Assembly (NCBI GenBank): GCA_041743105.1 | Contig: JBGTNI010000047.1 | Location: forward strand, 19,478-83,477 | Direction: 5' to 3' | Length of the DNA stretch: 64,000 bases | Source: Mycobacteriales bacterium | GTDB lineage: Bacteria > Actinomycetota > Actinomycetes > Mycobacteriales > QHCE01 | Shown: piece by piece, positions 13,964 through 17,451 of the stretch | Position numbering within the stretch: the first letter of the stretch is position 1 | Layout: each line of letters begins with the position of its first letter | Made by a program: the position numbers and the translations under genes | Notes under the pieces: model-generated | The model's input: the letters and a program-made list of their open reading frames with translations, nothing else | The model's database searches: none | Told to the model about the DNA's origin: nothing

Positions 13964-14551
13964 CTAGATCAGCCAGATCACGAGCAACAGGACCGCCGCG
14001 AGCGCTACAACAGCCATGATCGAACTCAGGCGCCGTCGACGTCGTGTCGCGGCACGTTGCTTCACCGCATCGCGGGCGTGTTCGTCGAACACTCGACGCC
14101 GCGCGGCCCGCACTGCCGCGACGTCGACATCGACATCGGCGACGGCCCGGCGCAGTCGATCCACCAGTTCTGCAGGCGTAGCACTCTGCCGCGACGGCGG
14201 TGCGGCGAAGTTAGGTGCGGCGAAGTTAGGTGCGCTGAAGTTAGGTGCGCTGAAGTTGGGAATAGTAACGTCAGGAATGAGTACCTGCGCGGCGACCAGG
14301 CGGGCCTGTGCATTCGACAGAGCACGCTTGGCCAGGATGCGCCACTGCTGCGACTGCGCCAACTGCTCGTCACGGATTCCACGCTGCGCCGCCAGATCGC
14401 TGTCTCCTTGAGCGCCGAGCTTAAGATGGCGGCGCTCGATGACCTGTGGAAGGTGACCCAAACTGCTCACCGCCTCGCAGTACTGCCGCCATGCCAGATC
14501 GGTGGGCTCGCCGCTAGTCGGCGCCGCGCCGATGGCTCCGTCGGTGCTCAT
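13964..14551 (-). CDS. tail-anchored coiled-coil protein with a PNF[S/A]A pentapeptide repeat (hypothetical)
   Basis: 195 aa. It has helical Q/R/A-rich segments, the repeat IPNFSAPNFSAPNFAAPNFAAPP, and a single hydrophobic segment at the extreme C-terminus (IMAVVALAAVLLLVIWLI, then stop). Its start overlaps the FtsK-like gene stop by 4 nt. Confidence 0.65.
   Translation of the reverse strand: MSTDGAIGAAPTSGEPTDLAWRQYCEAVSSLGHLPQVIERRHLKLGAQGDSDLAAQRGIRDEQLAQSQQWRILAKRALSNAQARLVAAQVLIPDVTIPNFSAPNFSAPNFAAPNFAAPPSRQSATPAELVDRLRRAVADVDVDVAAVRAARRRVFDEHARDAVKQRAATRRRRRLSSIMAVVALAAVLLLVIWLI
14201..14260 (-). repeat. 4 x 15-bp in-frame tandem repeat
   Basis: TGCGGCGAAGTTAGG occurs twice, followed by TGCGCTGAAGTTAGG and TGCGCTGAAGTTGGG. 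Together they encode the (PNF[S/A]A)4 repeat of the 13964..14551 protein. Confidence 0.9.
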
Positions 14552-17451
14552 CGACGCACCCCGGCGGCGACCTGCTCGGCCTGACCGCTCATGAGCGGGC
14601 CGAACGGAACCAGCTCAATCGGCGAGGCGCCACTACCACGATCAACGAACAACGCGCGATGTGGCTGCGGCGTGAACCGCAGATACGGGCCGCACAATGC
14701 CTGCACATCCGCCTCCGGCGCACGCAAGAACACCAGCCCAGCTAGCAGCGGCGCCGCCTCATACCCCAGCTGTTCGGTGAAAATTCGAGCGCTATTCCAC
14801 CAGCCCAACAAATACATCCGTGCCAAGGGGCCCTCACGCACCAGTTGGGCCAGCACATGTGCCGGCACCGCGCCGGCCATGGTCGGAGAAGTAAGTCTGG
14901 AGGCCCGATGCAGTCCCGCGCCGATGATGTAGCTCACGGGCTCGTCGTCGGCTATTTGCGTCGGAGAGTCGGAGTCCGGTAGACGCGCTTGCAGCTGCTG
15001 TCCCAGCTCGATGAGACGCTGGCCGATTCCAGCGGCGGGCACCACCTCAACATCATGCCCGCGTCCGCGCAGCGCCCGCGCTAACCTGGCCAGCTCCGCG
15101 TTATGCTCCGCTCCGCTGACTCCGCCTGCACCGTCGAGCAGCACATACCGCGCGGCAGGCCTATCTGCATCCGTAGCCTTCGCGCTGACCGACAGCGCCA
15201 GCGCCGCACTGGATAAAACGCCGAGCGCGTCGTCGCGACCGTCGCCTAGCAGCGCCACGGCGCAGCCCGGATCGCCTCGCAGCTCAAACGTGACCGGCTC
15301 GGAGGACACGCTGATCGGTAACCCCAGGATTGCCCGGCCATCCGACTGCGAACCGCTATGGCCGCCATCCTGCCAGCCGTGATCGTCGATGAGCAACCGC
15401 ATCAGCTGTCCCGGCTTGCTGGGCCGGCGAGCATAGAACACCCGGGGCGGCACCACGGCTCCGCTGGCCTGCCAGAGCTGTTGCCGGAGCTGATCGAGCT
15501 GAATTTCATCGGCGTAGGCAACCACGGCACGTTGATTACGCGCCGGTGCACCGTAGTCGGAATTGAGAATCACCTCACCGCGATACCGCAGCTGCGCGGC
15601 TTCGGTATTGCCGCGTCCCAGCACGGCTTCGGATTCACTGGCCTCTGTCTTGAGGCTAATCCGCCACGGAAACTGACCGAAAATGGAGCGCTCCTTGCTT
15701 GCCAGCGTGTCGATGCCCGACAGGGTCTGGGAAGCCAGGATCAGATGAATTCCTACAGCACGGCCACGACGTGCCAACGTCTCGATGATGTCGATGGCTT
15801 CGCGTCCGATCTCATCACCCTGCGCAACCATCACCTGGAACTCATCGATCACCAACAATATGCGGGGCACAACCTGATCGGGGTACCTACGGCGCAACGC
15901 AGCAAGGCTGGCGACGCCACGGGCTCGAAACTGCTCCGCACGGTGGGCGAACTCGACTTCGAGGTGGCGCAGCACGGCGAGCCCGAACGACCGGTCTCCC
16001 TCCAGTCCCAGCACGCGGGCGTGCGGCATCCAATACGGCCGATCGGCGCCAGGACCCAGCCGGTCAAATTCCAGGCCATCTTTGAAATCCAGCAGGTACA
16101 TCTCGACCTGTTCCGGGCTGTAACGAGCCGCGATGCTGTGCAGTAAGACCAACAGCAGATTGGACTTTCCCTGCCCTGATGCACCGCCGACCAGCAGGTT
16201 GGGCAGCGCGGGGTCGGCACTGCGCAGACTCAACTCCACGATGTCAGTCCCGGCCAGCCCGATGGGCGCGCTCACACCGTCGGTGGCATCTTGCGACCAT
16301 CGCTCGTCGGAGCGCGGCAGCACCCGGTCCAGTTCGACGCTGGGCGCGGCACGCGCCGTCGCGGCACGCGCCAGCTGATCGGCGACCCATTGGATCAGGT
16401 CGCGCTGGGGTGCCGGGTCGGGGCGAACGACGACATCGGCGGATGTCGTGACCCCTTCCATGCACACCCCACCCTCAACCGCGCGTAGCTGCATGGTCTG
16501 CTGCAGCACCGGCGCACAATCGATCTCCGATGCCGCCAGTGCTGCCGGGTCAGTGACGAACAGAAATGAGATCCCGCGAGCCGGGCCGGCGTGCACTAAC
16601 CGCTTCAGCTCGGCCTGAACCCGGGTGTCGATACCGTAGGGGTAGTTCAGCGCCACCAGCAGCCGGTAAGGCTCGGGTTGCCGGCCAAGAACCTCGGTTA
16701 GCTGCCCGAGATTTGCCACCCCATGCTGACCAGAAAGTTCAGCCACCCGCAACGCCGCGGTCCGGGCCCCCTGCAGCCACTCCAGGAGCTGCTCTGTGCT
16801 GGTCAGCGGCTCGGCAAACAGCGAGGTACCCAACGCACCAGTAGCTCCAACGCGCAGGCGCCCAAACGGGCTCAGCGCTCCAGTGAGTGCAGGATCGAAG
16901 ACCGAGACCTCGAGGCCACCGACTCCTACGGTGGCCAGCGCCCGCAAGACCAACGTGTGCAGCACCGAACCGGACCAGGAGTTCGGGGTGTCATGATCGG
17001 CGTTGTCACAGCACAGCGTGACGTTGCCGGCATCGAGCAACGGCAGTAACGCCGGTAACTCCGCCGGTATGGCCAAGCCCGAAACGTCGATGGAACCCCA
17101 TCGCAGATAGCCGGCACCGTCGCAACCCAGCCATTCCCCGCTGCGCCACCGAGAATCCGACCACGGTGCTGCGGCAAGCCCAGGAGCTAGCCGTTCCGCG
17201 CGTCCGATGAGCACAGCGCAGACATCGTCGAGAGCTTCGCCCGTCTGGGCATCTACTTGTTGGGTGGCGCGATGCTGTTGGCGCGCGCAGTCCCGCTCCG
17301 CCTCGCGGTACCGCTGTTCGGTGGTATGCATATGCGTGTCGGCAGTGGCTAGCAGCTCGGCCGCGATGTGGTGCAGCCGTGTAAAGGATGTGCGGAGCCG
17401 CTGCTCTTCGGACGAGGTGGCTAGCGGACTGGGCGACATGAGGCGGCTCAC
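14548..17451 (-). CDS. FtsK/SpoIIIE-family ATPase, EccC-like multi-domain, no transmembrane segment
   Basis: 967 aa. Walker A is GGASGQGKS (residues 422-430, nt 16162..16188) and Walker B is ILLVIDEFQ (residues 531-539). These are followed by HLILASQ and WRISLK motifs typical of FtsK/EccC. The flanking regions look like degenerate P-loop domains (for example VALLGDGRDDALGVL). The N-terminus is coiled-coil and contains no hydrophobic helix. Confidence 0.85.
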   Translation of the reverse strand: MSRLMSPSPLATSSEEQRLRTSFTRLHHIAAELLATADTHMHTTEQRYREAERDCARQQHRATQQVDAQTGEALDDVCAVLIGRAERLAPGLAAAPWSDSRWRSGEWLGCDGAGYLRWGSIDVSGLAIPAELPALLPLLDAGNVTLCCDNADHDTPNSWSGSVLHTLVLRALATVGVGGLEVSVFDPALTGALSPFGRLRVGATGALGTSLFAEPLTSTEQLLEWLQGARTAALRVAELSGQHGVANLGQLTEVLGRQPEPYRLLVALNYPYGIDTRVQAELKRLVHAGPARGISFLFVTDPAALAASEIDCAPVLQQTMQLRAVEGGVCMEGVTTSADVVVRPDPAPQRDLIQWVADQLARAATARAAPSVELDRVLPRSDERWSQDATDGVSAPIGLAGTDIVELSLRSADPALPNLLVGGASGQGKSNLLLVLLHSIAARYSPEQVEMYLLDFKDGLEFDRLGPGADRPYWMPHARVLGLEGDRSFGLAVLRHLEVEFAHRAEQFRARGVASLAALRRRYPDQVVPRILLVIDEFQVMVAQGDEIGREAIDIIETLARRGRAVGIHLILASQTLSGIDTLASKERSIFGQFPWRISLKTEASESEAVLGRGNTEAAQLRYRGEVILNSDYGAPARNQRAVVAYADEIQLDQLRQQLWQASGAVVPPRVFYARRPSKPGQLMRLLIDDHGWQDGGHSGSQSDGRAILGLPISVSSEPVTFELRGDPGCAVALLGDGRDDALGVLSSAALALSVSAKATDADRPAARYVLLDGAGGVSGAEHNAELARLARALRGRGHDVEVVPAAGIGQRLIELGQQLQARLPDSDSPTQIADDEPVSYIIGAGLHRASRLTSPTMAGAVPAHVLAQLVREGPLARMYLLGWWNSARIFTEQLGYEAAPLLAGLVFLRAPEADVQALCGPYLRFTPQPHRALFVDRGSGASPIELVPFGPLMSGQAEQVAAGVRR

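Follow-up and report, generated by a model that had tools for sequence, protein, structure and literature searches.

We found that a soluble ATPase of 967 amino acids, which we call FtsK3, has three tandem domains of the FtsK/EccC type and that only the middle one contains an intact nucleotide-binding site. FtsK3 is encoded in a 64,000-nucleotide stretch of DNA from a bacterium of the order Mycobacteriales (assembly GCA_041743105.1, contig JBGTNI010000047.1, positions 19,478 to 83,477); we refer to this whole stretch as the window, and all coordinates below are positions within it. The neighboring genes encode proteins of 87 and 195 amino acids, which we call p87 and p195, an Hsp70, and a J-like protein. 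We favor the view that FtsK3 is the motor of an undescribed, minimal export module similar to type VII secretion systems (T7SSs), and we put the probability of this at roughly 55%.

FtsK3 has a single live nucleotide-binding site and no membrane anchor

A prediction made earlier from the sequence alone (the original prediction) had described an EccC-like ATPase that lacks a membrane anchor and has one live P-loop between apparently dead ones. We found the open reading frame (ORF) exactly where it had been placed, with every quoted motif at its predicted residue numbers (Table 1). The ORF starts with GTG; the start of its database twin, P0001, is at an ATG four codons later.

The only Pfam domain in FtsK3 is FtsK_SpoIIIE (residues 413-578, E = 3.6e-20), and the live P-loop is therefore far beyond chance. 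The pattern GxxxxGK[ST] occurs once, at residues 422-430, and the sole Walker B motif is at residues 531-539. We aligned 44 FtsK3 homologs that are 33-83% identical (alignment A1). The catalytic residues of the middle domain, G423, G426, G428, K429, S430, D536, E537, and Q575, are invariant in all 44. The flanking domains never contain GxxxxGK[ST], the P-loop lysine, or the acidic pair of Walker B. Other residues in these domains are conserved, including D186-P187 and Y270-P271 in the N domain and W884-W885, R932, and D937 in the C domain. Based on this pattern of conservation, a single live P-loop between dead ones characterizes the family as a whole and not FtsK3 alone. We also considered that FtsK3 might be a decayed EccC pseudogene. 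We rejected this because the length is conserved in the family, each of the three domains has invariant residues, and the predicted fold is confident.

We found no transmembrane (TM) segment in FtsK3. The highest Kyte-Doolittle mean over 19 residues was 1.68, on a conserved, buried strand and helix, and no TM helix was seen in a model of the protein made with AlphaFold2 (AF2). Just 22 in-frame codons, overlapping the p87 gene, separate the start codon from an upstream stop, and a missed N-terminal membrane anchor is thereby excluded. That is, FtsK3 is a soluble protein with a dead-live-dead arrangement of domains, as had been predicted.

The flanking domains have an FtsK/EccC-type fold

We used alignment A1 as input for the full-length AF2 model, which had a mean confidence score (pLDDT) of 88.8. 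In this model, a long helix (residues 12-88) is followed by three alpha/beta domains. The long helix is missing from shorter members of the family from Firmicutes (~800 amino acids). In each of these domains, the elements of secondary structure come in the same order: a beta-hairpin, a pre-P-loop strand, a helix, a strand, a long helix, the Walker B strand, a helix, and a sensor strand. In a Foldseek search of the PDB with the full model, the best match was the cytoplasmic, three-ATPase part of EccC from T. curvata (4nh0; E = 2e-32 over 973 columns). Fragments of EccC and EssC with two domains came next (~1e-23, ~630 columns), followed by single FtsK motors (~1e-16).

The N domain contains LEVSVFDPALTG (residues 180-191) and LLVALNYPYG (residues 264-273). 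It has no Walker A, and the DE of Walker B is replaced by N/D-Y. Comparison of the N and middle domains by hhalign gave a match in register (E = 2.4e-5, probability 75%), in which FDP was paired with LDFK, DYP with the DEF of Walker B, and GPxRGVS with GRAxGIH. A phmmer search of the PDB with the N domain alone gave only a chance match to a Fab.

The C domain contains VALLGDGRDDALGVL (residues 732-746) and YVLLDGAGG (residues 769-777), with GDGRDDALG in place of the P-loop and GAGLHRA in place of Walker B. In this case hhalign detected no significant similarity to the middle domain (E = 0.13), and for this reason we modeled the C domain separately (AF2 model A3, pLDDT 89.9). The best Foldseek match of this model was the ATPase domain of EccCb1 (6j17; E = 1.1e-9, TM-score 0.62-0.68). 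Further matches were to FtsK, EccC, EssC, TcpA, and HerA, and included 4nh0, 4n1a, and 5fv0; those to EccCb1, FtsK, EccC, and EssC had E values of 1e-9 to 1e-7 and TM-scores of about 0.6. Two points that could refute the original prediction had been named in advance: the fold of the flanking regions, and a TM segment or an upstream extension. Both flanking regions have P-loop folds of the FtsK/EccC type, and neither a TM segment nor an extension was found, as described above.

Table 1. Features of FtsK3 and the genes of its operon (positions in the window).
Feature	Position	Strand	Basis or remarks
FtsK3, soluble ATPase, three FtsK/EccC-fold domains	14548..17451	minus	ORF and translation, Pfam, AF2, Foldseek
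N-terminal long helix, residues 12-88, putative coiled-coil docking element	17188..17418	minus	AF2 DSSP, pLDDT ~80
N domain, residues ~105-370, degenerate FtsK-like	16342..17139	minus	hhalign against middle domain, full-model Foldseek
Middle domain, residues ~385-665, only catalytically intact FtsK/EccC domain	15457..16299	minus	Pfam, PDB match, invariant residues
Walker A GGASGQGKS, residues 422-430	16162..16188	minus	
Walker B ILLVIDEFQ, residues 531-539	15835..15861	minus	
C domain, residues ~695-967, degenerate FtsK/EccC fold	14551..15369	minus	Stand-alone AF2 model, Foldseek
p195, tail-anchored membrane protein	13964..14551	minus	Helical N-terminal part, PNFxA repeats, C-terminal TM 173-195
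p87, WXG100-like but unannotated helical family; candidate substrate or adaptor	17453..17716	minus	
Dedicated Hsp70, 527 amino acids, most of lid absent	17902..19485	minus	PF00012, 6e-110
Co-chaperone, J-like + TPR + C-terminal TM, 422 amino acids	19473..20741	minus	TPR Pfam matches; TM ~370-395

FtsK3 is closer to EccC than to FtsK and is not an EccC/EssC ortholog

We compared FtsK3 to the NCBIfam models and to proteins of known structure. Its best NCBIfam match was EccCa (1.8e-27), in the D1 part of the model (positions 412-669 of 673). The scores were 96.4 bits against a cut-off of 509 for TIGR03924, 58.6 against 347 for TIGR03925, and 70.5 against 778 for TIGR03928. The FtsK equivalog NF007615 matched residues 528-601 only, with 21.9 bits against a cut-off of 1566. 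A sequence search of the PDB gave D1 of EccC (4nh0) as the best match, with YukB and EccC5 also above FtsK; the matching region is the middle domain. Based on these rankings and those from Foldseek, FtsK3 is closer to EccC than to FtsK. Nonetheless, FtsK3 is not an EccC/EssC ortholog: it has no TM segment, one live site, and no Ecc or Ess partners in the window, and its scores are far below the cut-offs. The description "EccC-like" thus holds as a resemblance in sequence and fold and does not hold as membership in EccC/EssC proper.

FtsK3 is found in a conserved module in distantly related bacteria

More than 300 homologs of FtsK3 have 900-1000 amino acids. All of them have PF01580 as their only domain, and the best name found for them is "FtsK/SpoIIIE domain-containing", although some sources use "DNA segregation ATPase FtsK/SpoIIIE". 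We scanned one genome per species, which gave 80 loci with heavy sampling of Kribbella. The carriers in Actinomycetota are Kribbella, Cryptosporangium, Nocardia, Nonomuraea, Amycolatopsis, Actinomyces, and Microbacteriaceae; the others are Firmicutes (Oscillospiraceae, Blautia) and one Saccharibacterium.

We counted neighboring genes on the same strand, from -6 to +7 kb, at 82 distinct loci, using ORF calling and iterated hidden Markov models. A p195-like tail-anchored protein was encoded beside FtsK3 at 63 of the 82 loci, a small p87 protein at 59, and a longer protein with a p87 paralog as its N-terminus at 47. Hsp70 was linked to FtsK3 at 22 loci, a J-like protein at 19, and GrpE at 16. That is, about a quarter of the loci, the window included, have a dedicated Hsp70/J-like/GrpE set. 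In addition, FtsK3 and the next gene share a 4-nucleotide stop/start overlap at 66 of 80 loci.

Some loci depart from the common arrangement. In one (L067, 12250-19062), an AAA ATPase of 518 amino acids replaces Hsp70 and is accompanied by a 584-amino-acid protein with a TM segment; three p87-like genes follow. In a locus from Oscillospiraceae (L085, 9018-18656), a resolvase and a transposase lie upstream of a gene for an 830-amino-acid FtsK3 without the N-terminal helix. The other genes in this cluster encode four p87-like proteins, Hsp70, GrpE, a DnaJ-like protein of 577 amino acids, and a TPR protein of 392 amino acids. In Nocardia (L005, 11926-18748), an FtsK3/Hsp70/GrpE operon abuts a DO-GTPase2/GAP1-N2/Fn3 conflict system on the opposite strand. 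We considered a general link between the FtsK3 module and GAP1-N2/DO-GTPase systems and rejected it; the Nocardia locus is the only such case among the 82 loci, and these genes are absent from the window.

A search with the N-terminal 380 residues of FtsK3 gave 209 cluster representatives. A few of these are longer proteins with a single Walker A each, in which additional segments lie ahead of the core of N, middle, and C domains: a Ser/Thr kinase and two TM helices in P0257, and a coiled coil and a TM segment in P0272. Such relatives, with the TM segment fused in cis, provide support of the Rosetta-stone type for action of FtsK3 at the membrane. As a separate observation, the longer relatives (P0257, P0272, P0233, and P0254) fuse the dead-live-dead core to a kinase and TM helices, to a coiled coil and TM segment, or to Sel1/TPR repeats, and one longer relative carries a duplicated dead N domain.

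p195 is a candidate membrane partner for FtsK3

The C-terminus of p195 is a single helix with a hydropathy of 2.98 at residues 177-195. The ATG of p195 overlaps the stop codon of FtsK3 (ATGA), and the two genes are thus translationally coupled. The original prediction had proposed that a soluble motor of this kind has to be recruited to the membrane by partners. We consider recruitment of FtsK3 by a partner to be plausible, though inferred, because p195 is tail-anchored, because the stop/start overlap is conserved at most loci, and because some distant relatives have TM segments fused in cis. Weak matches of p195 to DotU, PrlF, and SepX were dismissed as noise from the TM segment or from low-complexity sequence. 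Separately, four tandem PNF[SA]A pentapeptides (~14198-14260, minus strand) lie in the linker that joins the helical part of p195 to its TM segment; they were not seen in the orthologs inspected.

p87 may be a distant relative of ESAT-6

p87 has no Pfam match and no name in any source. Thus, by the Pfam criterion, the window protein is not a WXG100 protein; it has no PF06013 match. The small proteins of this family are helical and 85-90 amino acids long, and we built a profile from 25 members (A2). In the PDB, this profile aligned with ESAT-6 without gaps over 70 residues (E about 0.009), and the nearly invariant G-[ST] of the p87 family fell on the G-S of the W-G-G-S turn of ESAT-6. The turn in the p87 family is [IVL]-[GA]-G-[ST], with no Trp. 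PF06013 was found below threshold in seven of the 25 members and LXG in two. We regard a relationship of p87 to ESAT-6 as a lead, not as proof. Most of the small members end in [YF]-A-x-x-[IL]-COOH, and a C-terminus of this form would suit a recognition tail. This tail is the sole hint in favor of a further proposal in the original prediction, that the degenerate C domain may bind p87; apart from this proposal, the original prediction is supported.

The long proteins with a p87-type N-terminus contain an acidic linker, and their C-termini are interchangeable. Among these C-termini are Tox-REase-2, a papain-fold glutamine deamidase (Gln_amidase), an ADP-ribosyltransferase, and several unassigned types. 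Which C-terminus is present goes together with the family of the small ORF that follows (20/25 and 5/6 for the two types found most often). Polymorphic toxin-immunity pairs would be expected to show such covariation.

The operon and its surroundings in the window

FtsK3 is in a tight operon on the minus strand. The genes are, in order, those for the 422-amino-acid J-like/TPR protein, Hsp70, p87, FtsK3, and p195. The J-like gene overlaps the start of the Hsp70 gene by 13 nucleotides. A Pfam match to DnaJ is weak and was found in homologs of the J-like protein only. The Hsp70 matches positions 101-514 of 599 in the PF00012 profile and has the nucleotide-binding domain and the substrate-binding domain. 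It scored 350 bits against the NCBIfam model for DnaK, for which the cut-off is 648. Since this is below the equivalog cut-off, we take it to be a specialized paralog and not the housekeeping DnaK.

Upstream of the operon (20994-26691) are a bldC-like gene (69 amino acids, HTH_17/MerR) and genes for Spo0M, an ELFV dehydrogenase, and purM. The same genes lie upstream of the orthologs in Cryptosporangium (L003) and in a related metagenome-assembled genome (L004). Based on this shared synteny, the operon is a stable chromosomal resident in this clade, vertically inherited and not part of an island. No p87 paralog bearing a toxin and no second gene of the FtsK family was found in the window. Searches with PADLOC and PHROGs gave generic matches to FtsK domains only and none to p87 or p195, and scans of the window with Rfam and for tRNA genes gave no matches.

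Two other regions of the window deserve mention. Just downstream of the module (12490-13139, minus strand), a PIN-domain toxin gene with an upstream gene for an 85-amino-acid NikA/RHH-like protein is probably a VapBC-type toxin-antitoxin pair. Farther away (48180-50486, plus strand), a gene encodes a protein of 768 amino acids with a long N-terminal half that is rich in Q, P, and E and probably disordered, and a C-terminal P-loop of the ParA/MinD type (VVNPKGGAGKTV). We presume that it resembles actinobacterial proteins of the EspI/Ssd type. This gene accounts for a spike in AT skew at 48-50 kb.

A possible mechanism and the alternatives

How might FtsK3 work as an export motor? We suggest that it would dock by its N-terminal helix on the tail-anchored p195 and could then oligomerize at the membrane, as the motors of FtsK and EccC do. 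The two dead domains may serve as a scaffold and as surfaces for substrate recognition, by analogy with EccC, in which D3 binds the tail of EsxB (4n1a). The single live domain would power export of p87-type proteins, which are putative hairpins, either alone, as in the window, or paired with paralogs that bear toxins. The membrane-tethered J-like/TPR protein and Hsp70, with GrpE where it is present, might hold or load substrates, a role analogous to that of EccA and EspG. A bolder proposal, which we hold only tentatively, is that the module is a self-sufficient and unrecognized export route of monoderm bacteria. Here, a soluble motor with one site, seated on a tail anchor and fed by membrane-tethered Hsp70, J-like protein, and GrpE, would export ESAT-6-like hairpins and toxins tagged with such hairpins.

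Several observations weigh against export. The function is inferred from context for every member of the family. No matches to EccB, EccD, EccE, or MycP, or to EssA, EssB, EsaA, or YukD, were found by Pfam and NCBIfam among the operon genes and their neighbors in the window, and the membrane proteins of the operon bring only one to a few TM helices each. There is no toxin fusion in the window, where p87 is the sole recognizable cargo. The similarity of p87 to WXG100 proteins is weak: designed coiled coils match as well or better, an apolipoprotein matches similarly, and the Trp of the WXG motif is absent. The fold of the N domain is supported by hhalign and by the full-length Foldseek match, and not by a stand-alone search. 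In its J-like N-terminal domain (~20547-20702, minus strand), the 422-amino-acid protein has SPD, and not HPD, as the tripeptide between helices II and III. The corresponding tripeptide at related loci is SPD, SPE, LPD, NPD, or HPK, and from these sequences the private co-chaperone may engage its Hsp70 atypically. Lastly, no TM-like segment was detectable in any protein of the L085 cluster from Oscillospiraceae, which is in a mobile context.

The last two observations fit an explanation without export that we consider unlikely, in which the module is a cytoplasmic, chaperone-coupled system for conflict or defense, and FtsK3 and Hsp70 would, for example, sense an invader and release or activate toxin domains. 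NTP-dependent conflict systems of the GAP1-N2/DO-GTPase kind, with links to Hsp70, GrpE, and DnaJ/TPR proteins, are described by Kaur et al. (2020; PMC7159879), and the operon in Nocardia directly adjoins one such system. However, this adjacency was found at one of 82 loci, and the PADLOC matches were generic. In addition, the tail-anchored partner is translationally coupled to FtsK3 at most loci, the swappable C-termini with their co-varying, immunity-like genes are a signature of exported polymorphic toxins, and the position of the operon beside purM and the bldC-like gene is conserved in this clade.

Somewhat less likely still is that FtsK3 is an accessory ATPase that serves a canonical translocon whose genes lie elsewhere, either an ESX/T7SS or Sec, by sorting or unfolding toxins and WXG-like substrates. 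A soluble protein with two of three domains dead and an operon without channel-forming partners would fit such a role, and Tox-REase-2 has been assigned to T7SS by its WXG-type N-domain (Zhang et al. 2012, PMC3482391). On the other hand, the module is self-contained in distant lineages, Saccharibacteria and Firmicutes among them, and small helical proteins of its own are always part of it; a direct function at the membrane is implied by the relatives in which TM segments are fused to the core; and no other gene of the FtsK family was found in the window. We consider it very improbable that FtsK3 translocates DNA in the manner of FtsK, SpoIIIE, or TraB, whether for chromosome segregation or for conjugative transfer. 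The Pfam match, the names given to some homologs, and the FtsK-like PHROG matches all suggest this function, but EccC and EssC rank above FtsK in searches by sequence and by fold, there is no TM domain and no match beyond the FtsK motor domain, and the neighbors are genes for chaperones, small helical proteins, and toxins, not for relaxases, replication, or segregation. The reading that FtsK3 is the motor of an export module is the one we prefer.

Implications

The T7SS field assumes a membrane-embedded EccC or EssC with several nucleotide-binding domains and with channel partners that are specific to the lineage. The FtsK3 family has one live site, two fossil domains, a tail anchor that acts in trans, and often a private Hsp70 set. 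Its members range from actinomycetes of the soil to Firmicutes of the gut and to Saccharibacteria. If the module does export proteins, then it would define the minimal requirements for protein translocation of the FtsK type, it would be a natural experiment on the role of the degenerate domains of EccC, and it would provide an exit route for many polymorphic toxins of the Kribbella type (restriction endonuclease, deamidase, and ADP-ribosyltransferase). If the route is also self-sufficient, then it would be without precedent among bacterial secretion routes in having an Hsp70 system of its own, and it would amount to a minimal T7SS without any of the known channel partners. If there is no export, then the module would be an uncharacterized, Hsp70-coupled conflict module. 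In both cases, the genes now bear no annotations other than "FtsK/SpoIIIE domain-containing" and "hypothetical".

Comparison with known systems

EccC and EssC have N-terminal TM helices, a DUF domain, and nucleotide-binding, FtsK-like domains D1-D3, each with a Walker A. EccC (T7SSa), EssC/YukB (T7SSb), and TsxC (T7SSc-j), like FtsK3, consist of FtsK/SpoIIIE-fold domains in tandem. The co-encoded proteins are also alike: helical proteins of ~90 amino acids and toxins with a helical N-terminal targeting domain. Furthermore, the key catalytic domain of FtsK3 comes after a degenerate one, as D1 of EccC comes after the DUF. In contrast to EccC and EssC, FtsK3 has neither TM nor FHA domains, it has three and not four NTPase-fold domains with a single Walker A, and it is accompanied by a tail-anchored protein and an Hsp70/J/GrpE set. 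In the catalog of Garrett et al. (2024; PMC11217815), the ATPase of all ten T7SS subtypes (a-j) is described as bound to the membrane and as having four NTPase domains. The FtsK3 type is not in this catalog, and the words Hsp70 and DnaK are absent from its text.

FtsK/SpoIIIE, TraB, and TcpA share with the middle domain of FtsK3 the RecA-like motor fold, Walker A and B, and sensor residues. They differ in that they have one motor and a membrane domain (and in FtsK a DNA-recognition domain, gamma), they are found in DNA-related contexts, and they gave weaker matches than EccC.

The GAP1-N2/DO-GTPase systems resemble the FtsK3 module in having a private Hsp70, GrpE, and a DnaJ/TPR partner in actinobacteria, and they differ in the GTPase and GAP1 genes, which are absent from the window and from 81 of the 82 FtsK3 loci. 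In the passages retrieved from Kaur et al. (2020), FtsK is named solely as an effector domain that is rare and inactive, and there is no description of this three-domain ATPase.

The closest precedent is a footnote in Zhang et al. (2012, Biol Direct; PMC3482391, Table 1, footnote 6) on YueA-like ATPases with three HerA/FtsK domains, of which the middle one alone is active. These ATPases accompany solo WXG genes in other phyla (Gram-negative) and were read as mobile versions of T7SS; the same paper gives Tox-REase-2 as a T7SS(WXG) toxin of Actinobacteria. FtsK3 has the same dead-live-dead logic and may share the link to small WXG-type proteins. As to the solo WXG gene, a gene for an 87-amino-acid protein of a helical family adjoins FtsK3, and the affinity of this protein to WXG100 is weak. 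The footnote gives no sequences or accessions and mentions no membrane partner, Hsp70, or toxin link. In addition, the FtsK3 family is found in Actinomycetota, Firmicutes, and Saccharibacteria, and it is chromosomally syntenic in the clade of the window. In the literature we found no published account of the actinobacterial and firmicute family, of the tail-anchored partner, of the linkage to Hsp70, J-like proteins, and GrpE, or of solubility. It looks as though the module itself is undescribed and its domain logic was glimpsed before, in the ATPases of Zhang et al.

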